This document shows, piece after piece, positions 1 to 59,488 of a stretch of DNA of 64,000 bases. The DNA lies in the sequence record MZ234018.1, one strand, 5' to 3'. Under the pieces are notes generated by a model that worked only from the letters and a program-made list of their open reading frames with translations, ran no database searches and was not told the origin of the DNA. The number at the start of each line of letters is the position of its first letter. Position 1 is the first letter of the stretch. The translations under genes were made by a program, and so were the position numbers. Source of the stretch: Escherichia phage vB_EcoM-101117BS1.

Positions 1-392
1 CCGAAACTGTTCTTTGGACTGCAGCACAGGTCGGTAAACAAGCTTGGGACTCTTCCGATGTTAACATGAGCGATATTGCAGAATCTGCTGGTCTTCCAGC
101 AACAGCTGATTTTATGCTTGCGGTCATTGAAACCGAGGAGCTAGCAGCTGCTGAACAACAACTCATTAAGCAAATCAAATCACGATATGGCGATAAGAAT
201 AAGTGGAATAAGTTTTTAATGGGTGTTCAAAAGGGAAATCAGAAATGGGTAGAAATTGAACAAGATTCTACTCCAACTGAAGTGAGTGAAGTAGCAGGTT
301 CACAACAGATTCAGGCTGAACAGAATCGCTATCAAAGAAACGAATCAGCTCGAGCTCAGTTAGATGCTTTGGCAAATGAATTAAAATTTTAG
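1..392 (+). CDS. 41: DNA helicase gp41, C-terminal part (ORF enters from the window edge)
   Basis: Frame open from position 3 to stop at 392; acidic tail ending DALANELKF; lies directly upstream of dmd/61.x/61 as in T4. Confidence 0.7.
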   Translation, partial: ETVLWTAAQVGKQAWDSSDVNMSDIAESAGLPATADFMLAVIETEELAAAEQQLIKQIKSRYGDKNKWNKFLMGVQKGNQKWVEIEQDSTPTEVSEVAGSQQIQAEQNRYQRNESARAQLDALANELKF

Positions 393-421
393 TTTACAAG
401 CTGACAAGACTATGGTATAGT
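392..421 (+). promoter_or_regulatory. phage early (sigma70-type) promoter
   Basis: GTTTAC -35 at 392-397, about 18-bp spacer, TATAGT-like -10; 30 bp upstream of dmd. Confidence 0.55.
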
Positions 422-450
422 AGTCTTGTTGGTTAAATGAGGAGATTGTT

Positions 451-633
451 ATGGAATTGGTAAAGGTAGTTTTTATGGGGTGGTTTAAGAATGAAAGCAT
501 GTTTATTAAAGAAATCACAATGATGAAAGATGACGTTCAATGGGCTACTACTCAATATGCTGAAGTTAATAAAGCATTAGTTAAAGCTTTCATTGATGAC
601 AAGAAAGTGTGCGAAGTGGATTGCCGAGGATAA
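451..633 (+). CDS. dmd: Dmd antitoxin (inhibitor of RnlA/LsoA endoribonuclease toxins)
   Basis: 60-aa ORF MELVKVVFMGWFKNESMF...; length and sequence match my recollection of T4 Dmd; GAGGAG RBS. Confidence 0.9.
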   Translation: MELVKVVFMGWFKNESMFIKEITMMKDDVQWATTQYAEVNKALVKAFIDDKKVCEVDCRG

Positions 634-634
634 T

Positions 635-892
635 ATGCATATTGTTTTATTTAAACCTACTCCGTATAACGTCAGGAAAAATACTCAATTCAAAGCACTT
701 ATTGCAGATACGTGGGAATTGGTGTTAGATATTCCAGCAGAAGAAAGTCCTCCATTTGGTCGAGTGGAATTTATTAAGTTTGCTGTACGTCCTACGAAGA
801 GGCAGATTCGTCAGTATAAAAGGTATTTTCGTAAAATCGTTAAGCTAGAGAAACAGTTTGTAACATGTGATTACGCAGAAGTTTTAAAATAG
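635..892 (+). CDS. hypothetical protein at the T4 61.4 position (85 aa, basic C-terminal half)
   Basis: ATG at 635 with GAGGA RBS; ORF-track start 593 overlaps dmd and is probably not used. Confidence 0.6.
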   Translation: MHIVLFKPTPYNVRKNTQFKALIADTWELVLDIPAEESPPFGRVEFIKFAVRPTKRQIRQYKRYFRKIVKLEKQFVTCDYAEVLK

Positions 893-894
893 CT

Positions 895-925
895 GTTTAC
901 TTTTGTTGGAAATTGAGATACTATA
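895..925 (+). promoter_or_regulatory. phage early promoter
   Basis: GTTTAC at 895-900, 18-bp spacer, TACTAT -10; upstream of sp. Confidence 0.5.
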
Positions 926-952
926 TAAACATAAACTACTGAGGAGATTATC

Positions 953-1246
953 ATGAAAAAATTTATTTTTGCTACAATTTTTACTTTGGCTTCTTGTGCT
1001 GCTCAGCCTGCTATGGCAGGATATGATAAAGATTTGTGTGAATGGTCTATGACTGCAGATCAGACTGAAGTTGAAACTCAAATTGAAGCGGATATTATGA
1101 ATATCGTTGAGCGCGATCGTCCTGAAATGAAAGCTGAAGTGCAAAAACAACTTAAGTCTGGTGGTGTAATGCAGTATAATTATGTTCTGTATTGCGATAA
1201 AAACTTTAATAACAAAAATATCGTAACCGAAATCACAGGCGAATAA
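953..1246 (+). CDS. sp: Spackle-like periplasmic superinfection-exclusion protein
   Basis: 97 aa, N-terminal signal peptide MKKFIFATIFTLASCAAQPAMA; GAGGAG RBS; position between 61.4 and 61.2. Confidence 0.8.
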   Translation: MKKFIFATIFTLASCAAQPAMAGYDKDLCEWSMTADQTEVETQIEADIMNIVERDRPEMKAEVQKQLKSGGVMQYNYVLYCDKNFNNKNIVTEITGE

Positions 1247-1247
1247 T

Positions 1248-1880
1248 ATGATTTATTATATGCACAAAAATCCACCGTTTAAATACGGTAAATTTCCTGA
1301 TGCACAATGTTATAATATAACGCCTGATGAAAATAACCGTGGATATCTTATTGGCACAATTTTTGTAATTGTTAAAGATAACGAAATCGTTGCCTGGGCA
1401 GATTTTAAAGGTACAACATATGATGTTAATCCGGTGCCTTTCACATATTACAATTTAATGGATTTGGCATACGATTATAATTGGTTTAATCATGACACTT
1501 TGGCTCATATTGAAGGTGTAGGATTTGATATTTCATATTCGGAATACACTTTAAGCCCTATGAGTCGAGCCCATAAAGAACCTGAATATTTTTCATTTAG
1601 GAAACGTGTAAACTTTAAACGCAGCACAGAGTATGTCGGTGGAATCTTTGTTAAAGATAATCGAATTATTCGTATTAATTATCCTTTGAGCGTTAGTCAA
1701 AAAGATATTGATGTTGATTTAGATTTCACTGAAAATAATATTAATAATATTGCTTCTGTGTATTTTGGTATCGATCACAAAATTGTAATATGTGGATATG
1801 AATTACCGTTTGAAGAACAGCCTAAAGTAAAAGTTTCTATTGACGATCAAATTTTTAATGCTTTTATGAATAAAGGTTAA
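1248..1880 (+). CDS. 61.2-like protein with two internal VKDN-module repeats (possible anti-DarT factor AdfA homolog)
   Basis: 210 aa; two copies of a module containing I/V-F-V-K-DN; C-terminal SIDDQIFNAFMNKG shared with the next ORF; AdfA link is from memory. Confidence 0.65.
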   Translation: MIYYMHKNPPFKYGKFPDAQCYNITPDENNRGYLIGTIFVIVKDNEIVAWADFKGTTYDVNPVPFTYYNLMDLAYDYNWFNHDTLAHIEGVGFDISYSEYTLSPMSRAHKEPEYFSFRKRVNFKRSTEYVGGIFVKDNRIIRINYPLSVSQKDIDVDLDFTENNINNIASVYFGIDHKIVICGYELPFEEQPKVKVSIDDQIFNAFMNKG

Positions 1881-1884
1881 TATG
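1837..1884. repeat. 48-bp direct repeat, copy 1 (3' end of 61.2 plus start of next ORF)
   Basis: ctattgacgatcaaatttttaatgcttttatgaataaaggttaatatg; 45/48 identical to 2195-2242. Confidence 0.9.
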
Positions 1885-2238
1885 TATAGTTCTGAATTTT
1901 CATATTTAAAAATGGAAAAAATTTCATACGATTTTATAGATGAAAAGGTTTATTACAGTTTCCATGAACCGCGTTTTAATAGTGAGGTTGGGTTTATTGT
2001 AGTAAAAGACAATTTCATTTTAAAGATATATTCGGCATTAAAGGATTTTCACTACGAAAATATTAACCTAAAATTTGATAAAGAAAACGTTCGTAATTGT
2101 GCAGTAACAATTACAGGAAATAAAGGTACATGTGTTATGCTATCTGATGAAATTAATGATTTGCTAAATGATGCAGAAAATATTACTGCGCCATCTATTG
2201 ATGACCAAATTTTTAATGCTTTTATGAATAGAGGTTAA
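1882..2238 (+). CDS. 61.1-like protein, single VKDN module, paralog of 61.2
   Basis: 118 aa; GFIVVKDNFIL motif; same C-terminal 14 residues as 61.2. Confidence 0.65.
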   Translation: MYSSEFSYLKMEKISYDFIDEKVYYSFHEPRFNSEVGFIVVKDNFILKIYSALKDFHYENINLKFDKENVRNCAVTITGNKGTCVMLSDEINDLLNDAENITAPSIDDQIFNAFMNRG

Positions 2239-2242
2239 TATG
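2195..2242. repeat. 48-bp direct repeat, copy 2 (3' end of 61.1 plus start of next ORF)
   Basis: Near-identical to 1837-1884; the two copies bracket the 61.1 ORF. Confidence 0.9.
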
Positions 2243-2404
2243 AAAACATATAAAGAATTTATTAAAGAAGATATGGTCGCTGGAGATTCAGGTGGTAATC
2301 CTGAAAATATCTCTACTGGAACAACATCAGGTGCTGTAGTAAATAAAGGTCCTGAACAGATTCCTAAAAAGAAAAAAGAGGAATCTAAAGAAAAAGAAGA
2401 GTAA
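2240..2404 (+). CDS. small Lys/Glu-rich hypothetical protein (54 aa)
   Basis: ATG 2240 overlaps the previous stop; ends 2 nt before the gene 61 ATG; not in the ORF track (under 60 aa). Confidence 0.45.
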   Translation: MKTYKEFIKEDMVAGDSGGNPENISTGTTSGAVVNKGPEQIPKKKKEESKEKEE

Positions 2405-2406
2405 AA

Positions 2407-3435
2407 ATGTCATCAATACCTTGGATTGATAATGAGTTTGCGTATCGTGCATTGGCTCATTTACCTAAATTCACACAAGTAAATAATAGTTCAACTTTTA
2501 AATTGCGGTTTAGATGTCCTGTTTGTGGAGATTCAAAAACCGACCAGAATAAAGCTCGTGGATGGTATTATGGTGATAATAATGAAGGAAATATTCATTG
2601 TTATAACTGTAATTATCATGCACCAATCGGAATATATTTAAAGGAGTTTGAACCTGATTTATATCGTGAGTATATCTTTGAAATAAGAAAAGAAAAAGGT
2701 AAAAGTCGTCCAGTAGAAAAACCTAAAGAACTTCCTAAGCAACCTGAGAAGAAAATAATTAAATCTCTTCCGTCATGTGTTAGATTAGATAAACTGGCGG
2801 AAGACCATCCAATTATAAAATATGTAAAAGCTCGTTGTATTCCAAAGGATAAATGGAAATATCTTTGGTTTACAACCGAATGGCCTAAATTAGTTAATAG
2901 CATAGCACCGGGAACATACAAAAAGGAAATTTCTGAGCCTCGTCTTGTTATTCCAATTTATAATGCTAATGGAAAAGCTGAGTCTTTTCAAGGACGTGCA
3001 TTAAAGAAAGATGCTCCTCAAAAATATATCACCATTAAAGCTTATCCTGAGGCAACAAAAATTTACGGTGTTGAACGAGTTAAAGATGGTGATGTATATG
3101 TTCTAGAAGGACCTATAGATTCACTTTTTATTGAAAATGGTATAGCTATTACAGGTGGTCAATTAGACCTAGAAGTTGTTCCATTTAAAGATAGACGAGT
3201 GTGGGTTTTAGATAATGAACCTCGTCACCCTGACACTATCAAACGAATGACTAAATTAGTTGATGCTGGAGAAAGGGTTATGTTTTGGGATAAATCTCCC
3301 TGGAAATCAAAAGATGTCAATGATATGATTAGAAAGGAAGGTGCAACCCCTGAACAAATTATGGAATATATGAAAAATAATATTGCCCAGGGGTTGATGG
3401 CTAAAATGCGGCTATCTAAATATGCTAAGATTTAA
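2407..3435 (+). CDS. 61: DNA primase gp61
   Basis: 342 aa; N-terminus MSSIPWIDNEFAYRALAHLP; zinc ribbon CPVCG...CYNC; TOPRIM-like acidic motifs. Confidence 0.95.
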   Translation: MSSIPWIDNEFAYRALAHLPKFTQVNNSSTFKLRFRCPVCGDSKTDQNKARGWYYGDNNEGNIHCYNCNYHAPIGIYLKEFEPDLYREYIFEIRKEKGKSRPVEKPKELPKQPEKKIIKSLPSCVRLDKLAEDHPIIKYVKARCIPKDKWKYLWFTTEWPKLVNSIAPGTYKKEISEPRLVIPIYNANGKAESFQGRALKKDAPQKYITIKAYPEATKIYGVERVKDGDVYVLEGPIDSLFIENGIAITGGQLDLEVVPFKDRRVWVLDNEPRHPDTIKRMTKLVDAGERVMFWDKSPWKSKDVNDMIRKEGATPEQIMEYMKNNIAQGLMAKMRLSKYAKI

Positions 3436-3632
3436 ATCAACCCAACTAAAGCAAATGCTAAATCTACAAATGTATCAAGAGTAACTACTGGAATATTAAT
3501 ACCATGCGCAATTGCAACAGGTGATAGAATAAAGTTCCAGAGTAAAATTCCTACCATAGCAGAAATAGTAAAAGCTATACGTTTTTTATTACCTTTTATG
3601 GCATTAACAAGTGCCATTAATTTTTGTACCAT
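3432..3632 (-). CDS. candidate antisense small membrane protein (66 aa)
   Basis: Only ORF in the 61-56 interval; strong AAGGAGGA SD 4-5 nt before its ATG; two hydrophobic segments; stop overlaps the gene 61 stop. Confidence 0.35.
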   Translation of the reverse strand: MVQKLMALVNAIKGNKKRIAFTISAMVGILLWNFILSPVAIAHGINIPVVTLDTFVDLAFALVGLI

Positions 3633-3644
3633 ATGTCCTCCTTA

Positions 3645-3669
3645 TTGCTTTATATATTTATTGTATAAT
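3645..3669 (+). promoter_or_regulatory. candidate MotA-dependent middle promoter for gene 56
   Basis: MotA-box-like TTGCTTTA at 3645-3652, 11 bp, TATAAT at 3664-3669. Confidence 0.45.
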
Positions 3670-3703
3670 TAATCTACTAACCCATGAATTGAAAGGAAAA
3701 ATA

Positions 3704-4222
3704 ATGGCTTACTTTAATGAATGTGCTCATTTGATCGAAGGTGTTGATAAAGCAAATCGTGCATATGCTGAGAATATTATGCACAATATTGACCCACTGC
3801 AGGTTATGCTTGATATGCAGCGGCATTTACAGATTCGTTTGGCTAATGATAAACCAGAAACAAATCGTCATCCTGATTCACTTGAAACCGCAGGAGAAGT
3901 TCTTGCTTGGTTGCGAAACCAAGACGATTATATCGCAGATGAAACTCGCGAACTATATACTTCTCTTGGTGGTATGAGTAATGGTGAAAAAGAAGCTTCT
4001 GCTGTATGGAAACCTTGGAAGAAACGTTATTCTGAAATGCAATCCAAGAAAATTCAAGATTTATCTCCCGAAGATCAGCTTGAAATTAAATTTGAACTGA
4101 TTGACCAATTTCACTTTTTCATGAATAAATTTATTGCTCTTGGAATGTCAGCTGAAGAAATCTTTAAACTTTATTACCTGAAAAATGCTGAAAACTTCGC
4201 TCGTCAAGACCGAGGTTATTAA
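3704..4222 (+). CDS. 56: dCTP pyrophosphatase gp56 (probable)
   Basis: 172 aa from ATG 3704; position between 61 and soc; ORF-track start 3611 looks like a non-coding extension. Confidence 0.7.
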   Translation: MAYFNECAHLIEGVDKANRAYAENIMHNIDPLQVMLDMQRHLQIRLANDKPETNRHPDSLETAGEVLAWLRNQDDYIADETRELYTSLGGMSNGEKEASAVWKPWKKRYSEMQSKKIQDLSPEDQLEIKFELIDQFHFFMNKFIALGMSAEEIFKLYYLKNAENFARQDRGY

Positions 4223-4422
4223 TGGCTCGTTTAAATAAGCGTCAGCTTAAGAAAGCCCATAAGAAACGTATTGACCAGCTATTTAAAGATTATAACAAGG
4301 AGCTCGTATGTGAGCTCTTAACTAATCAACTTCGTATGGTTGATTGGGTTATAGAAGAAGGTCCTGACGAAATTTTTGTCAGCGAAGAAGCCTTAAAATT
4401 AATTATAGAGCATTCAAAATGA
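4222..4422 (+). CDS. hypothetical protein (66 aa) between 56 and soc
   Basis: ATG overlaps the gene 56 stop (TAATG); basic N-terminus. Confidence 0.55.
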   Translation: MARLNKRQLKKAHKKRIDQLFKDYNKELVCELLTNQLRMVDWVIEEGPDEIFVSEEALKLIIEHSK

Positions 4423-4628
4423 AATTTGATTTCTACGCGTGGCAAAAAGCCGGGAGACCGGCTACTCGAGCATTTGGTTCTGATGGATATAATATTAGAG
4501 CCCATTGGAAATTTAATGCTCCAGAAGATTATTCTCCGGTAATTATTAACGGTGATGTTGTTATATTAACTAAAATCGGATATTTTAACGTTCCGCGAGA
4601 ATTTATTATAAATAATCATGTAATTTAA
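4419..4628 (+). CDS. hypothetical protein (69 aa) between 56 and soc
   Basis: ATGA stop/start overlap with the previous ORF. Confidence 0.55.
   Translation: MKFDFYAWQKAGRPATRAFGSDGYNIRAHWKFNAPEDYSPVIINGDVVILTKIGYFNVPREFIINNHVI
4607..4614 (+). promoter_or_regulatory. late promoter (TATAAATA) for soc
   Basis: Exact TATAAATA about 30 bp upstream of the soc ATG. Confidence 0.55.
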
Positions 4629-4644
4629 ATAAAAGGAGAATTAC

Positions 4645-4902
4645 ATGGCTAGTACTCGCGGTTATGTTAATATCAAAACATTTGACCAAGCAGTTGATGG
4701 TGGTACAATTCAGGGTAAAGAAATTTCTGTAGCTTTCCCTCTTTATTCTGATGTTCACAAAATTTCTGGTGCTCATTATCAGACATTCCCTTCTGAAAAA
4801 GCAGCATATTCTACAGTATATGAAGAAAATCAGCGTACTGAATGGATCACTGCTAATGAAGGTCTTTGGACTGTTACGCCAACTCCAGGTATTGGTGGTT
4901 AA
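4645..4902 (+). CDS. soc: small outer capsid protein Soc
   Basis: 85 aa; MASTRGYVNIKTF...EISVAFPLYSDVHKISGAHYQTFPSEKAAYSTVYEENQRTEWI matches my recollection of T4 Soc. Confidence 0.85.
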   Translation: MASTRGYVNIKTFDQAVDGGTIQGKEISVAFPLYSDVHKISGAHYQTFPSEKAAYSTVYEENQRTEWITANEGLWTVTPTPGIGG

Positions 4903-4907
4903 AATTT

Positions 4908-4934
4908 AAGGAATCCTTCGGGGTTCCTTTTTTC
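4908..4934 (+). terminator. intrinsic terminator after soc
   Basis: Hairpin AAGGAATCC-TTCG-GGGTTCCTT followed by a T-run. Confidence 0.7.
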
Positions 4935-4943
4935 GTTTTTGCA

Positions 4944-4973
4944 GTTTACATATCAAAATGAGTATGGTATAAT
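4944..4973 (+). promoter_or_regulatory. phage early promoter
   Basis: GTTTAC 4944-4949, 18-bp spacer, TGGTATAAT extended -10. Confidence 0.6.
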
Positions 4974-4999
4974 AGAATTATCTTATAGAGGAGAGCACT

Positions 5000-5206
5000 A
5001 TGTTAAATCGTTGGATTAAACCAAATGAAGATTTAGATATTATCATTTCACGGCATGTAATGAAGAAATATGAACTGCAACCATGGTCTACAGAAGTTGT
5101 TGTTCATTCATTTATGATGTACGCAGATGGTTCTGTCGAATTTAATGCAGAAATTCGATATGATTATGGCGAAAAGCAAGTCGAATTCAAGAGAGGCTTT
5201 TTGTAA
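5000..5206 (+). CDS. hypothetical protein (68 aa)
   Basis: ATG with GAGGAGAG RBS. Confidence 0.55.
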   Translation: MLNRWIKPNEDLDIIISRHVMKKYELQPWSTEVVVHSFMMYADGSVEFNAEIRYDYGEKQVEFKRGFL

Positions 5207-5547
5207 TGTTTATCTTTAATTGGTTTAAAAGTTTCTTTACAGATTTTTTCTCTACAACTCCCGGAGAAGGTGTAGTTCCTATTTCAAATGACTACCTTCC
5301 TTTAACTGTAGTTGAGTATGTTTATATGGGAGATGGAACAGTAGAAGCAGTTACTATGACTTATGAAGAAGCCCAAGAATATTATAAAAATCCTTGGCGC
5401 TGGTCAACACCTACTACATCATCTAATGCACAGAAAACACAGTCTAGTTCTGATTCATATGATACAAATGTTCCTGTTCATGTATGGACGGGCGATTCAT
5501 GTGGAAGTTCTTGTGATTCTAGTTGTTCATCTACATCTTGTGATTGA
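5206..5547 (+). CDS. hypothetical protein with Cys/Ser-rich C-terminal tail (113 aa)
   Basis: C-terminus [18 protein letters not shown]; ATG overlaps the previous stop. Confidence 0.55.
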
Positions 5548-5555
5548 GGAAAATT

Positions 5556-6041
5556 ATGGAAGCAATTTTGTTTGAAATGTCTATCAATAGCATTAGTATG
5601 GCGTTTGTCAAGGATGTTCCAATTACCGTAGCAGTAATGATTGATAAAAGATATGACAATAACATGTATCTAGTAGAAGATTTTATTTCAATGCCAATTC
5701 CAGAAGATGTTGAAATAAAACTTAAAAAGATCGGAATTATTGAAACTGTACAAAATTCTCCATTTATGGCAATTCAAGCATTTACTAAATCTAACTATAT
5801 TGATGTTGCTGAAGCATATTATAATAATAAACCGTTATCCTTCTATTCATATGATTCAATATATGATTGGAAAATAGATAAAGGAAATAAATTTATAATT
5901 ACGGACGAAAGTGCGCTATCATATTTTATTACCTCTTTATGGAATAATTTAAATCCAAATTTGCTAAAAATTCATAAATTTGACAATGCTCCTACTATTG
6001 TTTTAGGTAAAATAAATGAAAGCTCTCAAGAAGATTCTTGA
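5556..6041 (+). CDS. hypothetical protein (about 161 aa)
   Basis: ATG 5556 with GAGGA RBS; ORF-track start 5544 is a TTG overlapping the previous stop. Confidence 0.55.
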
Positions 6042-6219
6042 ATGGTTCAATAGACCAAACTCAATGTACATTGATGATGGTTGGGTTGAACAAGCAAATA
6101 AAGAAATGCAGAACGAATCGGAAGAATGGATGAAATCAATGATTAGTGCTGAGAAAGAAAAGAAATTAGAACGCTCAGCGCTTAAATTGATGAGAGACAT
6201 CTATGGGGATAAATCGTGA
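6016..6219 (+). CDS. hypothetical protein (67 aa)
   Basis: ORF overlapping the 3' end of the previous gene in another frame. Confidence 0.45.
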
Positions 6220-6227
6220 ACAAAGAT

Positions 6228-6380
6228 ATGACGCTGGAAGAGGCTAAAGCTAAAGCAAATGAAGCACTGGATTTGCTTCTTAAAATTGGCAGTAAAATGA
6301 TGGAAGAAAATGAGAAATATATCCAGGAAAACAAAATTCCCGATGGTCCATTAGTAGGCAAAAGGAAATCCCATGATTGA
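6228..6380 (+). CDS. small hypothetical protein (50 aa)
   Basis: Fills the gap between two called ORFs; end overlaps the next start. Confidence 0.35.
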
Positions 6381-6843
6381 AGTAGCAAAACATTATTCAA
6401 TAGAATTTATGTCTAAAGAAGGTAAATCAGTAAATACACTTGATAAAAAGTGCTCATTAATTATTCCTTTAGCAGAAAATCCGGATATTTTAATTAAAGA
6501 TATAAAAGAAAGAAAATATCCAGAAAATATTATTCTAATTATAAAGCATACTGAAGATATTTTGCAGAATACAGATTCACCATTTTCTTCTTCTGAAGCT
6601 TTAACTATTAAAGGCTATAAAAGAGCTCATGAATATGGTCTTTTTGACATGTTTGAAGATGATAAAGTTAAATTAGCGAGTCAGCCTTTTAAAAGTAAAA
6701 CATTCATTATTGAAGATATTAAAGATATAAATGCATTTGTTAAGATGGTCTGGGCTCATTTTGACGTTGGACTACGCTGGAGAATGTCCGAAGAAGAAAG
6801 AAAGATTGCTGAAGCTAATCGTCATTTTGGTTTTTATCGCTAG
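6373..6843 (+). CDS. hypothetical protein (156 aa), mrh-region
   Basis: Position between soc and modB; no motif recognised. Confidence 0.55.
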
Positions 6844-6851
6844 GAATTAAT

Positions 6852-7034
6852 ATGGATTTATTTGAGATGTTAGAAGATAATCATTCTACGAATATCCAGA
6901 ATGATTCTAGTGATTATAAGAAAGAGTACCGTATAGTATTACAGAATTATGGAATTGAAGCCCCAGATGCTCTTCTAGAAGAACTAGCTTCATACCATCT
7001 TGACCCTCCGCCCTGGGCTCCCTGGGCAAAATAA
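6852..7034 (+). CDS. hypothetical protein (60 aa)
   Basis: ATG with GGAA RBS; acidic. Confidence 0.45.
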   Translation: MDLFEMLEDNHSTNIQNDSSDYKKEYRIVLQNYGIEAPDALLEELASYHLDPPPWAPWAK

Positions 7035-7045
7035 TTCAAAAAGTT

Positions 7046-7076
7046 GTTTACTTTCCTTTCTATCGATGATATGATA
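7046..7076 (+). promoter_or_regulatory. phage early promoter
   Basis: GTTTAC 7046-7051, 18-bp spacer, TATGAT -10; upstream of modB. Confidence 0.55.
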
Positions 7077-7101
7077 GCTTCTGAAGTATACGGAGGCTAT
7101 C

Positions 7102-7725
7102 ATGATTATTAATCTTGCAGATGTTGAACAGTTATCTATAAAAGCTGAAAGCGTTGATTTTCAATATGATATGTATAAAAAGGTCTGTGAAAAATTTACT
7201 GACTTTGAACAATCCGTTCTTTGGCAATGTATGGAAGCCAAAAAGAATGAAGCTCTTCATAGGCAGTTGAATAAAATCATTAAAAAGCATTTAACTAAAT
7301 CACCTTATCAGTTATATCGTGGTATATCAAAATCAACAGAAGAACTTATTAAAGATTTACAAGTTGGAGAAGTGTTTTCAACGAATAGAGTAGATTCATT
7401 TACTACTAGTTTGCTCACAGCATGTTCTTTTTCTTACGCTGAATATTTTACTAAAATAATACTTCGCTTAAAAACTAATAAAGCTTTTAATTATTCTGAC
7501 CATATCAGCGATATTATACTTTCTTCTCCTAATACTGAGTTTAAGTACACGTATGAAGATACTGATGGATTAGATTCAGAGCGTACTGATAACTTAATGA
7601 TGATTGTGCGTGAACAGGAATGGATGATTCCAATTGGAAAGTATAGAATAACTTCTATTTCAAAAGAAAAATTACACGATTCATTTGGAACATTTAAAGT
7701 TTATGATATTGAGGTAGTTGAATGA
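7102..7725 (+). CDS. modB: ADP-ribosyltransferase ModB
   Basis: 207 aa; R-S-E-type ART motifs (YRGISKS, STNRV, EQEWMIP); paralog of the next ORF. Confidence 0.8.
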   Translation: MIINLADVEQLSIKAESVDFQYDMYKKVCEKFTDFEQSVLWQCMEAKKNEALHRQLNKIIKKHLTKSPYQLYRGISKSTEELIKDLQVGEVFSTNRVDSFTTSLLTACSFSYAEYFTKIILRLKTNKAFNYSDHISDIILSSPNTEFKYTYEDTDGLDSERTDNLMMIVREQEWMIPIGKYRITSISKEKLHDSFGTFKVYDIEVVE

Positions 7726-8324
7726 AATACTCAGTAATGCAACTAAAAGATTTTAAAATAAAATCAATGGATGCATCGGTGCGTGCTTCTATTCGTGAAG
7801 AATTACTTTCTGAAGGGTTTAATTTATCTGAAATTGAACTTTTAATTCATTGTATTACTAATAAACCAGATGACCATACTTGGTTAAATGAAATAATCAA
7901 ATCTCGTTTGGAACCAAACGATAAACCTCTTTGGAGAGGTGTTCCAGCTGAGACTAAACAAGTATTAAATCAAGGAATTGATATTATTACATTTGATAAA
8001 GTAGTATCAGCTTCATATGATAAAAATATAGCTCTACATTTTGCTTCTGGTTTAGAATATAACACACAAGTTATTTTTGAATTCAAAGCTCCTATGGTAT
8101 TCAATTTCCAGGAGTATGCTATAAAAGCTCTACGCTGTAAAGAATACAATCCAAACTTTAAGTTTCCGGATAGTCATCGTTATCGTAATATGGAATTAGT
8201 TTCAGATGAACAAGAAGTAATGATACCAGCTGGAAGTGTATTTAGAATTGCAGATAGATATGAGTACAAAAAGTATTCAACATACACTATCTATACTCTT
8301 GATTTTGAAGGATTTAATCTATAA
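7722..8324 (+). CDS. modA: ADP-ribosyltransferase ModA
   Basis: 200 aa; WRGVP, SASY, DEQEVMIP motifs; ATGA overlap with modB. Confidence 0.8.
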   Translation: MKYSVMQLKDFKIKSMDASVRASIREELLSEGFNLSEIELLIHCITNKPDDHTWLNEIIKSRLEPNDKPLWRGVPAETKQVLNQGIDIITFDKVVSASYDKNIALHFASGLEYNTQVIFEFKAPMVFNFQEYAIKALRCKEYNPNFKFPDSHRYRNMELVSDEQEVMIPAGSVFRIADRYEYKKYSTYTIYTLDFEGFNL

Positions 8325-8381
8325 TGGAAGGACTTAGATTCATTATACCATGAAAGTTTTAAAGCATTTTTACATAAAGTT

Positions 8382-8411
8382 GTTTACAAGTTAAGGTAAA
8401 AATGTTATAGT
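8382..8411 (+). promoter_or_regulatory. phage early promoter
   Basis: GTTTAC 8382-8387, 18-bp spacer, TATAGT -10; upstream of srd. Confidence 0.55.
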
Positions 8412-8450
8412 ATAAGTAGTAGTTAACCGTCCGTAAGATGTGAGAAAAAT

Positions 8451-9197
8451 ATGAAGCTGTCTAATAATCAAATTCGTAAAATTAAACGTCGTCTAGAGCA
8501 TACTCAGGCATCTGCAAAAAGACGTTCTAAAGATTTTAACTTAGACTTCAATTACATTAAGAACATTTTAGATCAAAAAGTTTGTGCTTACTCGGGAGAA
8601 CCTTTTGATAATCGTATTGAAGGAGAGAAATTATCATTAGAACGTTTTGATAATAACATTGGATACATTAAAGGGAATGTTATTGCAGTAAAGAAAAAGT
8701 ATAATACATTTCGTTCTGATTATACTTTAGAAGAGTTGATTGAAAAACGGGATTTATTTGCTTTGCGAATTGGTCGTTCATCTGCGAAAAAAGTTCATAA
8801 ACTAAATTTAGATGAAAAGAAATGGGCTAAAATCAAAAAGACTTATAATCAAATTAAAGCTATACAGAAAAAACGTGAAAACCGAATTGAACACATTTCT
8901 CAGCTTTCTAAATCAAAACAGACCTCTGACATTAAGCTAAGGATTATAGCACTTAAAGCACGTATTGATGGTTCTCGCATAGCAGAAGGCGCTGAAGTTG
9001 TTAAATTGAACGTTCTTCTTAAAGGCTCGGATTGGAAAATTGTGAAAAAGCTGTCAGAAGCAGAAATGCAATATGATATGTGTGATAAAATTATTCAAGG
9101 TGTAGAGCGGTATCAAAATTTGTCTTTTATTGATAAACTTAAACTGAAAAGAGGATACCCGCTAAATTGTTCAATTTTTAAACTTATCCGAGGATAA
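8451..9197 (+). CDS. srd: Srd-like protein (probable)
   Basis: 248 aa, basic; position between modA and dda as in T4. Confidence 0.55.
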   Translation: MKLSNNQIRKIKRRLEHTQASAKRRSKDFNLDFNYIKNILDQKVCAYSGEPFDNRIEGEKLSLERFDNNIGYIKGNVIAVKKKYNTFRSDYTLEELIEKRDLFALRIGRSSAKKVHKLNLDEKKWAKIKKTYNQIKAIQKKRENRIEHISQLSKSKQTSDIKLRIIALKARIDGSRIAEGAEVVKLNVLLKGSDWKIVKKLSEAEMQYDMCDKIIQGVERYQNLSFIDKLKLKRGYPLNCSIFKLIRG

Positions 9198-9198
9198 T

Positions 9199-9510
9199 AT
9201 GGTTTATGTATATGCGATAGTTTACCGAGACAAAGACGGATTTACGGCGCCAGTTCCACTTGATGAACATCGTCCTGCTGTGTTTTTTGAAAGAGAGATT
9301 GCTGATAGAGTTTTTACTACTCTCAAAGACCAATATAAACTAGCTTTAGGTATGGGAATTCCAAGACTAGTTGAGACTCCACGCAAGTTTTGGTTTAATA
9401 AAATAGAAGTTAAACATGTTAAGCCTGATGTAGATACACAAAGATTATATCAACGAATTCTAGATACTGGGCGTATTGTTAGTATTCCAATTGCAGGGAC
9501 TTTCCGATGA
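9199..9510 (+). CDS. hypothetical protein (103 aa), dda.1 position
   Basis: ATG 2 nt after the previous stop; overlaps the dda start. Confidence 0.6.
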   Translation: MVYVYAIVYRDKDGFTAPVPLDEHRPAVFFEREIADRVFTTLKDQYKLALGMGIPRLVETPRKFWFNKIEVKHVKPDVDTQRLYQRILDTGRIVSIPIAGTFR

Positions 9511-10826
9511 CATTTGATGATTTGACAGAAGGCCAGAAAAATGCCTTTAACATCGTTATGAGGGCTATTAAAGAAAAGAAACATCATGTAACTATTAATG
9601 GACCTGCTGGTACTGGTAAGACTACTCTTACTAAGTTCATCATTGAAGCCTTAATATCTACAGGCGAAACTGGCATTATTTTAGCAGCTCCTACTCATGC
9701 AGCTAAAAAGATTCTTTCAAAACTGTCGGGGAAAGAAGCGAGTACTATTCACAGTATTCTTAAAATTAACCCAGTTACGTATGAAGAAAACGTTCTTTTT
9801 GAACAGAAGGAAGTACCAGATTTAGCTAAATGCAGGGTATTAATCTGCGACGAAGTGTCAATGTATGATAGAAAGCTATTTAAAATTCTGCTTTCAACTA
9901 TTCCACCATGGTGTACTATAATTGGAATAGGCGATAATAAGCAAATTAGACCTGTTGACCCAGGAGAAAACACTGCTTATATCAGTCCGTTCTTTACACA
10001 CAAAGATTTTTATCAGTGTGAACTCACTGAAGTTAAACGCAGTAATGCTCCTATTATTGATGTAGCTACTGACGTTCGTAACGGTAAGTGGATTTATGAT
10101 AAAGTTGTTGACGGGCATGGAGTACGTGGATTTACTGGTGATACCGCTTTACGCGATTTTATGGTAAATTATTTTTCAATCGTCAAATCTTTAGATGATT
10201 TGTTTGAAAATCGCGTAATGGCATTTACGAATAAATCTGTTGACAAGTTAAATAGCATTATTCGTAAAAAGATTTTTGAAACTGATAAAGATTTTATTGT
10301 CGGTGAAATTATTGTAATGCAGGAACCATTAATTAAAACATATAAAATTGATGGAAAGCCTGTGTCAGAAATTATTTTTAATAACGGACAATTAGTTCGT
10401 ATTATAGAAGCAGAGTATACATCAACGTTTGTTAAAGCTCGTGGTGTTCCTGGAGAATATCTAATTCGTCATTGGGATTTAACAGTAGAAACTTATGGCG
10501 ATGATGAATATTATCGTGAAAAGATTAAAATAATTTCATCTGACGAAGAATTGTATAAGTTTAACCTATTTTTAGGTAAAACTGCAGAAACTTATAAAAA
10601 TTGGAACAAAGGCGGAAAAGCTCCGTGGAGTGATTTTTGGGATGCTAAATCACAGTTTAGTAAAGTGAAAGCACTTCCTGCATCAACATTCCATAAAGCT
10701 CAGGGTATGTCTGTAGACCGTGCTTTCATTTATACGCCTTGTATTCATTATGCAGATGCTGAATTGGCTCAACAACTTCTTTATGTTGGTGTTACCCGTG
10801 GTCGTTATGACGTATTTTATGTGTGA
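9507..10826 (+). CDS. dda: Dda DNA helicase (SF1B)
   Basis: 439 aa; Walker A GPAGTGKT; sequence matches my recollection of T4 Dda. Confidence 0.95.
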   Translation: MTFDDLTEGQKNAFNIVMRAIKEKKHHVTINGPAGTGKTTLTKFIIEALISTGETGIILAAPTHAAKKILSKLSGKEASTIHSILKINPVTYEENVLFEQKEVPDLAKCRVLICDEVSMYDRKLFKILLSTIPPWCTIIGIGDNKQIRPVDPGENTAYISPFFTHKDFYQCELTEVKRSNAPIIDVATDVRNGKWIYDKVVDGHGVRGFTGDTALRDFMVNYFSIVKSLDDLFENRVMAFTNKSVDKLNSIIRKKIFETDKDFIVGEIIVMQEPLIKTYKIDGKPVSEIIFNNGQLVRIIEAEYTSTFVKARGVPGEYLIRHWDLTVETYGDDEYYREKIKIISSDEELYKFNLFLGKTAETYKNWNKGGKAPWSDFWDAKSQFSKVKALPASTFHKAQGMSVDRAFIYTPCIHYADAELAQQLLYVGVTRGRYDVFYV

Positions 10827-15096: not shown

Positions 15097-15468
15097 ATGT
15101 TTAAAATCGGTAAGAAATATTGCATTCGTGAAGGTGAAGAACAGAAATATCTACTTTCTGCTAGTAATAGGAATAGTTCTATTAATGCTGTAATATTGAC
15201 TAGTGAATTTATCGTTGAAGATATGAAAGGTCATAATGTTACAATGATTAGTACAGCATCTGGAAATGATGGAAAAATTCTTCATAGTTGTCAGAGTAAT
15301 GTTCTAATTTATGATGAAGAATTTGACTTCTTCAAAGAAGTTTCCGAAGATTTTGATTTTGAATGTACTATTACTATGAAATCTGGTGACCCTCTTTCTT
15401 TTACAGTTAAAGATGAAAGAAGTCGCTTGAGAATTATTAGTCTTCTTCAAGCCATTAAATTTAAGTGA
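15097..15468 (+). CDS. hypothetical protein (123 aa)
   Basis: ATG 3 nt after the previous stop. Confidence 0.55.
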   Translation: MFKIGKKYCIREGEEQKYLLSASNRNSSINAVILTSEFIVEDMKGHNVTMISTASGNDGKILHSCQSNVLIYDEEFDFFKEVSEDFDFECTITMKSGDPLSFTVKDERSRLRIISLLQAIKFK

Positions 15469-15473
15469 AAATT

Positions 15474-15734
15474 ATGAAATATATTAATCGTTCTATTGCA
15501 GCATTAGTATTAGCAGTGTCTTTAGTAGGATGTACTGATGCTGATAATGCAACCAAAGTTTTGTCTTCAAGTGGTTTTACGAATATCGAAATCACTGGAT
15601 ATAACTGGTTCGGTTGCTCTGAAAATGATTTCCAACATACTGGATTTCGTGCTGTTGGACCTACCGGGCAGAAAGTAGAAGGAACAGTATGTTCTGGGCT
15701 GTTCTTTAAGGATTCAACTATTCGTTTTAAATAA
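15474..15734 (+). CDS. putative lipoprotein (86 aa)
   Basis: Signal peptide with lipobox LVGC (MKYINRSIAALVLAVSLVGCTD). Confidence 0.55.
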   Translation: MKYINRSIAALVLAVSLVGCTDADNATKVLSSSGFTNIEITGYNWFGCSENDFQHTGFRAVGPTGQKVEGTVCSGLFFKDSTIRFK

Positions 15735-17622: not shown

Positions 17623-17651
17623 TTTACTTTACCACAAGGATGTGGTATAAT
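17622..17651 (+). promoter_or_regulatory. phage early promoter
   Basis: GTTTAC 17622-17627, 18-bp spacer, TGTGGTATAAT. Confidence 0.6.
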
Positions 17652-17676
17652 TAATTGGGCAAATGAGGATATTGAA

Positions 17677-17880
17677 ATGAAATCATATAAAGTAAATTTA
17701 GAACTTTTTGATAAAGCAGTTCATCGAGAATATAGAATCATTCAACGCTTTTTCGATATGGGAGAAGCCGAAGAATTTAAAAACCGCTTTAAAGATATTA
17801 GAGATAAAATTCAATCCGACACCGCAACTAAAGATGAACTACTAGAAGTTGCTGAAGTTATTAAGCGTAATATGAATTAA
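17677..17880 (+). CDS. hypothetical protein (67 aa), rIIA.1 position
   Basis: ATG with GAGGA RBS. Confidence 0.55.
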
Positions 17881-42620: not shown

Positions 42621-42640
42621 GTTAAAATGAGGAAATCAAA

Positions 42641-43027
42641 ATGGAAGTTGGAAAAACTTATATCATTAACCCTTTATTTAAAAATGACTTTGCTAACGAG
42701 TGCCGTTGCAATGTGATGATGCTAAATTTAATAGAGAAGCACGGACCTAGTTTTGTTGTAGATGAAATGGAAAGTGATGATTGTGCTGGTGAATGTGTGG
42801 TACGTGTAACTATGGAAGATGGCACTGAATACATGGCGGGTGGCCCACTTGAGACGTATTTTGAGATTTACTCTGAAGAATTCAAATACTTTACTGAGGT
42901 AACTTTAGAAAAGCCTCAATCCGCTAATGAAGGTATAGTTTCTGGCGTAACAAAAATTCACTGCATTGTTGACGAAAACAATGTAGATGAAATCATTGAA
43001 CTTTTGCGAAAAACTTTCAAAAAGTAG
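42641..43027 (+). CDS. hypothetical protein (128 aa)
   Basis: ATG with GAGGAAA RBS. Confidence 0.55.
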   Translation: MEVGKTYIINPLFKNDFANECRCNVMMLNLIEKHGPSFVVDEMESDDCAGECVVRVTMEDGTEYMAGGPLETYFEIYSEEFKYFTEVTLEKPQSANEGIVSGVTKIHCIVDENNVDEIIELLRKTFKK

Positions 43028-58800: not shown

Positions 58801-59088
58801 ATGTTTATGACTACTTATTTTGACACCCGCAAAAATTTCTGTGAAGTGGTTTTCTCAAAGGCGCCCAAAGACCTTCCTGCTCATTTGCAACCTACTAGCG
58901 AATCTATTAAAAACTACGTTGATGTGGTTTGTCCTTTAGAGTTCCGTACTGTAAATGGGCGTGATACTTTAGCTATCACTAAACTCAATCGCGAAATTGA
59001 CATTGACCCTTCAATTGCGCGCGAAATTAATATCTCTGATATTGGTGGTGGTAATGTTAAATCGCATGGTTTTCAGATGAGGTTCTAA
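58801..59088 (+). CDS. hypothetical protein (95 aa)
   Basis: ATG 58801 after GAGGAAAAT; ORF-track start 58765 lies in a hairpin. Confidence 0.55.
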   Translation: MFMTTYFDTRKNFCEVVFSKAPKDLPAHLQPTSESIKNYVDVVCPLEFRTVNGRDTLAITKLNREIDIDPSIAREINISDIGGGNVKSHGFQMRF

Positions 59089-59285
59089 TGAAATTCTTTT
59101 TAGGTCAAACTGTTGAATTAAAGGGAATTGGTATACCTGGATTAATTTCTAAGGTTTTACCTGCATTTAAATTGGGAGATGTTCAAGTAAAAGATGCTTA
59201 TATTGTTTCCTGGGTAGATGGAAATGAAGACCTTCGTATGGGTGATGAATTATCTCCTATCTATGGATTAAAGGAATTAGTATGA
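59088..59285 (+). CDS. hypothetical protein (65 aa)
   Basis: ATG overlaps the previous stop. Confidence 0.5.
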   Translation: MKFFLGQTVELKGIGIPGLISKVLPAFKLGDVQVKDAYIVSWVDGNEDLRMGDELSPIYGLKELV

Positions 59286-59488
59286 ATATAATTAATAAGA
59301 TTTTTGGAATTCAGTACATTAAGGTCACATATAAAGTAACAGATAAAAATCCGTATACAGATGAACATGAAGAACCACAAGTTAAGTCTATTATATTAGA
59401 AAAGGACCCTAACTGGCCAGTTGAATTTCGTCTTCCTTGCTATGGTCATTGGGCTGATGTTGAAATTATAAGCATTGAAAATGTCTGA
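59282..59488 (+). CDS. hypothetical protein (68 aa)
   Basis: ATGA overlap. Confidence 0.5.
   Translation: MNIINKIFGIQYIKVTYKVTDKNPYTDEHEEPQVKSIILEKDPNWPVEFRLPCYGHWADVEIISIENV

Follow-up and report, generated by a model that had tools for sequence, protein, structure and literature searches.

A conserved and probably late small membrane-protein gene at the dam-less gene 61-56 junction of a Tequatrovirus

The window analyzed in this study comprises 64,000 nucleotides of Escherichia phage vB_EcoM-101117BS1 (MZ234018.1), the first 9 kb of which carries, on the plus strand, the genes 41 - dmd - 61.4 - sp - 61.2 - 61.1 - 61 - 56 - soc - mrh - modB/modA, in the order of the T4 early region. Positions 2400-5000 match 554 phage records and are 100% identical to Escherichia phages 303Ecol101PP (OR062944) and vB-Eco-KMB22, both of which belong to Tequatrovirus; the closest complete genome is that of 303Ecol101PP (166,904 bp), with 99.4% identity over positions 1-9583 of the window. 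Gene 61 (2407-3435, plus strand, 342 aa), identified from the list of open reading frames, is 100% identical to a gene annotated as DNA primase in OR062944, and gene 56 (3704-4222, plus strand, 172 aa) encodes a dCTPase/dUTPase according to both a profile match (phrog_173, E=2.4e-44) and the OR062944 annotation. The gene 61 stop codon (TAA, 3433-3435) and the gene 56 start codon (ATG, 3704) delimit an interval of 268 bp (3436-3703), the length given in an earlier reading of this DNA that was made without database searches (hereafter the sequence-only reading). That reading gave the T4 map correctly, as the T4 annotation runs 61 - dam - 56 - segF - soc, and it was also right in placing two small ORFs at the segF position. 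These two genes occupy 4222-4628 on the plus strand (ORFs 4222-4422 and 4419-4628, encoding 66 aa and 69 aa, the second being DUF7422), and T2 has the same pair where T4 carries the homing endonuclease gene segF.

On the opposite strand of the 61-56 interval lies a conserved 66-aa gene (3432-3632, minus strand), an ortholog of RB69ORF029w belonging to phrog_2024, whose assignment draws on a PHROG match, its occurrence in 692 phage records, dN/dS values, an AlphaFold2 model and its presence in T4 and T2. Its stop codon (TAA, 3434-3432) overlaps the TAA of gene 61, the two coding sequences sharing 4 nt, and its Shine-Dalgarno sequence, AAGGAGGA (3636-3643, minus strand), can be read directly from the DNA and ends 3 nt ahead of the ATG. 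The opposite-strand ORF, its strong Shine-Dalgarno sequence and the overlap of the stop codons had all been pointed out in the sequence-only reading, and all were confirmed. AGGAG(G) precedes the ATG in all genera examined, while the 4-nt overlap with gene 61 is usual, not universal, among the other genera. On the plus strand, a scan located a terminator-like hairpin at 3598-3627 (8 bp stem, AACA loop, then a T-run; fold -8.9 kcal/mol, z = -1.96), which lies approximately 165 nt past the gene 61 stop and within codons 6-12 of the small gene. This hairpin, which is identical in sequence in T4 and T2, may act as a weak terminator of gene 61 transcripts. No minus-strand terminator was detected in gene 61 beyond the end of the small gene; therefore, a transcript of the small gene would run antisense into gene 61.

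The two hydrophobic segments previously attributed to the encoded protein are present at residues 19-42 and 45-66, with mean Kyte-Doolittle hydropathies of 2.0 and 1.85, respectively. In the AlphaFold2 model (mean pLDDT 79), the protein consists of three helices (residues 2-14, 16-42 and 52-63). The N-terminal helix is basic and amphipathic, with five Lys/Arg residues up to residue 18, and is followed by a long hydrophobic helix that bears an invariant WN(F/Y) motif (WNF in the window protein). A loop, HGINIPVVT, whose conserved form is (H)G-x-x-(L/I)-P, leads from this helix to the short, hydrophobic helix 52-63, which bears Asp53 and Asp57. Under the positive-inside rule, a basic N-terminus is expected to be cytoplasmic. 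On these features, the protein is predicted to reside in the inner membrane with its Lys/Arg-rich N-terminus facing the cytoplasm and a single long transmembrane helix, and the (H)G-x-x-(L/I)-P loop with its acidic residue, together with the C-terminal hydrophobic helix, would be located at the periplasmic face. It is also conceivable that the second hydrophobic segment could form a true second transmembrane helix. For RB69ORF029w, a single transmembrane segment was predicted at residues 21-41 (PMC1524935 supplement).

The small gene was identified by tblastn in 692 phage records, 502 of them at 90% identity or higher and the remaining 190 at 44-57% amino acid identity. On this comparative evidence, an ORF that is open and in the same place in 692 records, down to 44% amino acid identity, is far beyond chance. 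In addition to Tequatrovirus, it occupies the same slot between genes 61 and 56, on the opposite strand, in Mosigvirus (e.g., phages G2469 and RB69), Gaprivervirus (DK-13, TH40 and VR26), Dhakavirus (JS98, where it is unannotated), Jiaodavirus (KP179), Gelderlandvirus (Melville) and Kanagawavirus (CIP9), for a total of at least seven genera. T4 contains an intact copy (NC_000866, 17738-17938, plus strand) that adjoins dam and falls, unannotated, in the 309-bp gap left between gene 61 and dam; an intact copy likewise adjoins dam in T2, and the products of both copies match the window protein at 97-98% amino acid identity. The gene is missing from the annotations of T4 (NC_000866 and AF158101), T2 (LC348380) and JS98 (NC_010105, approximately 15370-15534), and the name RB69ORF029w is that of an RB69-specific ORF, given with neither a T4 gene name nor a similarity note.

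The match of the window protein to phrog_2024 covers the full length of the profile (E=1.4e-31, residues 2-66 on profile positions 1-65 of 65), and phrog_2024/RB69ORF029w agrees with the small gene in size, position between genes 56 and 61, opposite-strand orientation and a predicted transmembrane helix, with no difference of substance from the window protein. Entries 100% identical to the window protein have been deposited under the name 'hypothetical protein'. The first, word-indexed protein search returned only relatives at 90% identity or higher, and the other genera were reached with an alignment query and a full profile search. Among 1.84 billion representative proteins, the profile search yielded 8 matches at E <= 0.001, all of them relatives from T4-like phages; the four remote matches all match phrog_2024 themselves, and the two of these that were tested by tblastn led to T4-like phages. 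A scan of IMG/VR returned 10 loci only. The relatives share the motif WN[FY]-x3-P-x-A-x3-G-x2-LP. This ORF was not found in the literature searched on T4 ribosome profiling and small proteins, transcription start sites and antisense RNA, RB69ORF029w/phrog_2024, or small membrane proteins of Tequatrovirus. In Gaprivervirus, the small gene is duplicated in tandem (positions 2495-2901 of locus L018, also in loci L006, L019 and L022) and is followed by a second paralog of approximately 65 aa (containing KKDKKLIMGFLALDIFLWNLLVVPIAATQGVHLPQV), which abuts either the primase gene or a homing-endonuclease gene.

The pattern of variation in the small gene is that of a protein-coding sequence under constraint. 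Pairwise dN/dS values range from 0.05 to 0.30 within Tequatrovirus and Mosigvirus and from 0.24 to 0.68 within Gaprivervirus; variation falls mostly on the third position of codons and least on the second, and the indels seen in alignments are whole codons. At 44-57% amino acid identity the frame is still open, although synonymous sites are near saturation (pS 0.6-0.77). One potential explanation for this conservation is that the ORF is untranslated and that the constraint acts on DNA or RNA, through the gene 61 3' UTR or terminator, the nearby origin, or the promoters. The plus-strand hairpin within the ORF and the position of the region next to a promoter that in T4 is linked to oriA would be in keeping with such a constraint. 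However, the low dN/dS in Tequatrovirus and Mosigvirus together with the scarcity of changes at codon position 2, the persistence of an open frame at such divergence, the conservation of the start codon and Shine-Dalgarno sequence, the restriction of gaps to whole codons and the existence of the tandem paralog in Gaprivervirus all argue against it, and inspection by eye of one Mosigvirus sequence did not reveal the hairpin; an untranslated ORF is thus very improbable. Judged from these comparisons, the 692 records and the conserved Shine-Dalgarno sequence and start codon, the small ORF is a genuine small membrane-protein gene under purifying selection, and the sequence-only reading was right to describe a membrane-peptide ORF here.

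Immediately beyond the Shine-Dalgarno sequence of the small gene, and facing gene 56, is a predicted middle promoter of the MotA-dependent type (3643-3669, plus strand), assigned by by-eye alignment with T4 record X01416. It consists of the MotA box TATTGCTTTA (3643-3652), an 11-bp spacer and TATAAT (3664-3669). Middle promoters were recognized by a MotA box of the form (a/t)(a/t)(a/t)TGCTT(t/c)A near -30 and a TAnnnT -10 element 11-13 bp downstream, a description to which TATTGCTTTA-N11-TATAAT conforms. The element is the homolog of the annotated T4 promoter P(M)16.53, upstream of gene 56/oriA, and the MotA-box/TATAAT pair noticed in the sequence-only reading has thus been identified. Like the window promoter, P(M)16.53 has its MotA box followed by TATAAT at 11-13 bp and lies directly upstream of the gene 56 Shine-Dalgarno sequence. 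The two loci differ in that the window promoter abuts the Shine-Dalgarno sequence of the small gene and bears a late-promoter-like element on the opposite strand of its spacer, whereas in T4 the small gene Shine-Dalgarno sequence and the gene 56 promoter are approximately 0.9 kb apart. The corresponding site of RB69 carries a predicted middle promoter, Pm:16038 (PMC1524935 supplement). The same reading had put oriA in the segF/69 region; however, the T4 record places its rep_origin at the gene 56 5' end, with a note that the P(M)16.53 transcript primes oriA. By homology, an oriA-equivalent would be expected at the 5' end of gene 56 in the window.

The late-promoter-like element in this spacer, AATAAATA (3655-3662, minus strand), was identified by pattern search and cross-genus conservation and resembles gp55-type promoters, being the A(-13) variant of TATAAATA, the octamer expected at -13 to -6 in T4 late genes (gp55/gp33/gp45-dependent). 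It begins (reading 3662-3655) 29-30 nt upstream of the small gene ATG and sits within the 11-bp spacer of the opposite-strand middle promoter. Of the seven genera examined, six have ATAAATA 20-29 nt ahead of the ATG, and the sequence flanking it differs each time: T4 and T2 have GATAAATA, Mosigvirus has AATAAATA, Gaprivervirus and Jiaodavirus have CATAAATA, and Kanagawavirus has a perfect TATAAATA, while Gelderlandvirus has ATTAAATA in place of ATAAATA. In most genera examined, the element opens with A, G or C where the consensus has T. The 50 T4 late promoters listed by Geiduschek and Kassavetis (PMC2988020) include 32 with TATAAATA itself and nine with A at -13, the commonest variant, and the -13 position of late promoters is poorly conserved (Nolan et al. 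2006, PMC1524935). In RB69, Nolan et al. (2006) called the middle promoter Pm:16038 but, with their late-promoter HMM, no site before RB69ORF029w (PMC1524935 supplement). It is possible that ATAAATA partly reflects the A/T-rich flank of the opposite-strand MotA box where the promoters nest, which they do in Mosigvirus, Gaprivervirus and Jiaodavirus, all of them cassette-free (see below), as well as in the window.

The orientation of the small gene bears on its time of expression. In T4, transcription in both directions is confined to the late class, early and middle transcripts all being counterclockwise (Geiduschek and Kassavetis, PMC2988020); since the small gene is clockwise, it would have to be late. 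In the arrangement proposed here, the gene would lie on the clockwise (late) strand with its late promoter nested in the spacer of the opposite-strand gene 56 middle promoter, and we infer transcription from a gp55-type promoter, initiating near 3649 and yielding a leader of approximately 17 nt. This predicted 5' leader, when folded, had no significant structure (z = -0.45). In the literature checked, no transcript, ribosome-profiling or proteomic evidence was found for the small gene, and the words 'antisense' and 'unannotated' are absent from the T4 omics text checked. Across the window, WATAAATA is depleted, with 13 copies found compared to 23.4 expected from shuffles (99 of 100 shuffles had at least 13), as would be expected if spurious late promoters were avoided. 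One of the copies, at 4607-4614 on the plus strand, lies just upstream of soc; the T4 record has a putative late promoter annotated there.

The sequence-only reading had further claimed that the window contains no dam gene and no ORF with a DPPY or NPPY motif, and both statements held. In tblastn searches with T4 Dam, the best match in the window had E=1.6, and no strict DPPY or NPPY motif occurs in window ORFs of at least 60 aa. The looser pattern [DNS]PP[YFW] has five matches in the window (SPPF, DPPF, NPPF, NPPW and SPPY); these were rejected as marks of a methyltransferase, Dam tblastn having found no similarity anywhere in the window. The whole genome of 303Ecol101PP, the closest relative, was likewise searched by tblastn and yielded no dam (best E=0.8), and the OR062944 annotation lists no DNA methyltransferase, gp42 being the sole methyltransferase in it. 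Over the genes on either side, the small gene and the middle promoter of gene 56, the T4 and T2 dam loci share 93-97% identity with the window. The difference from T2 is a sharp indel in which window 3643|3644 corresponds to 1744|3162 of the T2 locus (L002, LC348380), with window 3300-3643 aligning with T2 locus 1401-1744 and window 3644-3900 with 3162-3419. The additional T2 block, which the window is without, measures 1,417 bp, contains T2_032 (181 aa) and dam, and lies exactly between the small gene Shine-Dalgarno sequence and the MotA box. T4 has dam and a remnant of 032 consisting of its last 23 codons, at 100% identity (NC_000866, approximately 17,642-17,710). Because T4 keeps these 23 codons together with dam, it is a deletion derivative of the T2 type. 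KarlGJung retains about a third of 032, also a partial deletion of the cassette.

The earlier suggestion that an antisense ORF is present instead of dam did not stand. A replacement of this kind, or gene swap, has in its favor the absence of dam and the fact that the ORF fills most of the 268-bp interval; however, T4 and T2 contain the same ORF together with dam, intact and at 97-98% amino acid identity, the edge of the indel lies outside the ORF, just beyond its Shine-Dalgarno sequence, and the ORF also occurs in genera without dam at the locus. The replacement explanation is refuted by these observations, with next to no probability remaining. Instead, dam would be absent from this phage as its lineage does not carry the 1.4-kb 032+dam cassette of T2-type phages.

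T2_032 is located at 1824-2369 of the T2 locus (L002, LC348380), ahead of dam in T2-type phages. Its similarities are weak and sub-threshold, to the DpnII family in Pfam (E=0.0096) and to REase_II in PADLOC (E=1e-4). DpnII is a restriction enzyme that cuts GATC. In Klebsiella phage SmallBear_ER8 (L029), a 032 homolog (1935-2507, 43% identical) is directly upstream of a dam that is 60% identical. This pair in a Klebsiella T4-like phage is found at a different locus, between denB and ndd. The occurrence of the two genes together at separate loci suggests, at the level of sequence comparison, that 032 and dam constitute a mobile nuclease-plus-methylase cassette of two genes. T4 dam is thereby recast as the remnant of a mobile module, not a fixed part of the replication-gene cluster, with a nuclease-like partner weakly similar to a GATC-cutting enzyme.

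The distribution of the cassette indicates which state of the locus is the common one. Dam was found at 90% identity or higher in 182 records, 032 at 95% or higher in 148 and the small gene at 90% or higher in 502, all of these counts including RefSeq/GenBank duplicates and a few partial records; the first and last of them imply that approximately 64% of Tequatrovirus records are without dam. Six other genera have the order 61 - small gene - 56 without dam at the locus. From this dam-less layout in six genera and in approximately 64% of Tequatrovirus records, it follows that T4 and T2 carry an extra cassette and that the phage studied here is missing nothing unusual. The locus is largely ordinary: the lack of dam is the commonest state, the small ORF has been deposited hundreds of times as a hypothetical protein, and there is nothing new in kind. 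In a review of T4-related genomes, dam goes unmentioned.

A lack of dam could also have arisen secondarily, by clean deletion of 032 and dam from a T2-like ancestor. Compatible with such an event are the match of the flanks to T2, at 93-97% identity as far as a sharp junction, the partly deleted cassettes of T4 (23 codons of 032 left) and KarlGJung (approximately a third), and the free recombination of Tequatroviruses. However, the nested promoters are the same in the cassette-free Mosigvirus, Gaprivervirus and Jiaodavirus, and most Tequatrovirus records (approximately 64%) are without dam. Recombination with a cassette-free relative would, in addition, give the same outcome and is not really a separate explanation. 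Secondary deletion is therefore considered unlikely. Since six genera without dam have the order 61 - small gene - 56, and the promoters are nested in the three that were compared, the arrangement in the window is most simply regarded as ancestral. It is likely that the 268-bp interval is a compact and probably ancestral 61-56 junction, holding a real late-strand gene for a small inner-membrane protein, with a late promoter nested in the middle-promoter spacer, and that the cassette is not carried.

The function of the small protein is a separate matter. Searches against Pfam, NCBIfam, PADLOC, PDB sequences and BFVD folds gave no functional assignment, and its structural neighbors are family members only. 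Small size, one or two hydrophobic helices and predicted late expression are features that would suit a holin, pinholin or antiholin-like lysis protein, and two submitters have labeled relatives 'Holin' (OE5505, UniRef) or 'putative holin' (KP1079), in both cases unreferenced. Holins were recognized by at least one transmembrane domain and a highly charged hydrophilic C-terminal domain, together with a match to a holin profile or linkage to an endolysin. The transmembrane helix is present in the small protein; however, in place of a charged C-terminal domain it has a hydrophobic end (...FALVGLI), with its basic residues at the N-terminus, so that the charged tail typical of holins is absent. 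No holin family in Pfam, NCBIfam or PHROGs was matched, the best being phrog_11161 (E=0.012) for one remote homolog only, and the gene is unlinked to an endolysin, e and t being elsewhere in the genome. In addition, T, E, RI, RIII and the spanins already explain lysis in T4. Class II holins and pinholins (S21 68), as well as T4 Imm and Sp, are like the small protein in size, in having one or two hydrophobic helices, in being phage-encoded and in their predicted inner-membrane site. The class II holins differ from it in the absence of sequence or profile similarity, in the location of charge (N-terminal in the small protein, not C-terminal) and in endolysin linkage. Imm and Sp are products of early genes on the other strand than the small gene, sp being at 953-1246 of the window on the plus strand. 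A holin or related lysis protein is thus doubtful. As a guess that is more likely wrong than right, the protein could have a late role at the envelope, such as that of an accessory in lysis timing or in membrane-associated assembly.

The reference annotations of T4, T2 and JS98 omit a conserved, probably late small membrane-protein gene, which deserves a name and inclusion in omics reference files. The stronger proposition, that the T4 reference lacks a conserved late gene for a small inner-membrane protein acting as an unrecognised envelope factor (in lysis timing, lysis inhibition or membrane-bound assembly), with a late promoter interlocked with the oriA/gene 56 promoter, is improbable in this full form. 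If it is true, the interlocked late and oriA/gene 56 middle promoters may compete as infection proceeds.

Two further observations concern the remainder of the window. Outside the first 9583 positions, the blocks of the window that align with 303Ecol101PP are 90.7-98.2% identical to it and are separated by small unaligned gaps (e.g., approximately 42636-42937 and 58808-59428); this patchy identity to OR062944 fits the usual mosaicism of Tequatrovirus. In addition, an extra gene of 118 aa is present at 1882-2238, after gene 61.2 (1248-1880). The C-terminal part of its product matches AdfA in Pfam (anti-DarT factor A; E=1.1e-7) and phrog_4122; T4 has 61.2 alone at this site, whereas the phage studied here has a second, shorter AdfA-like gene added.
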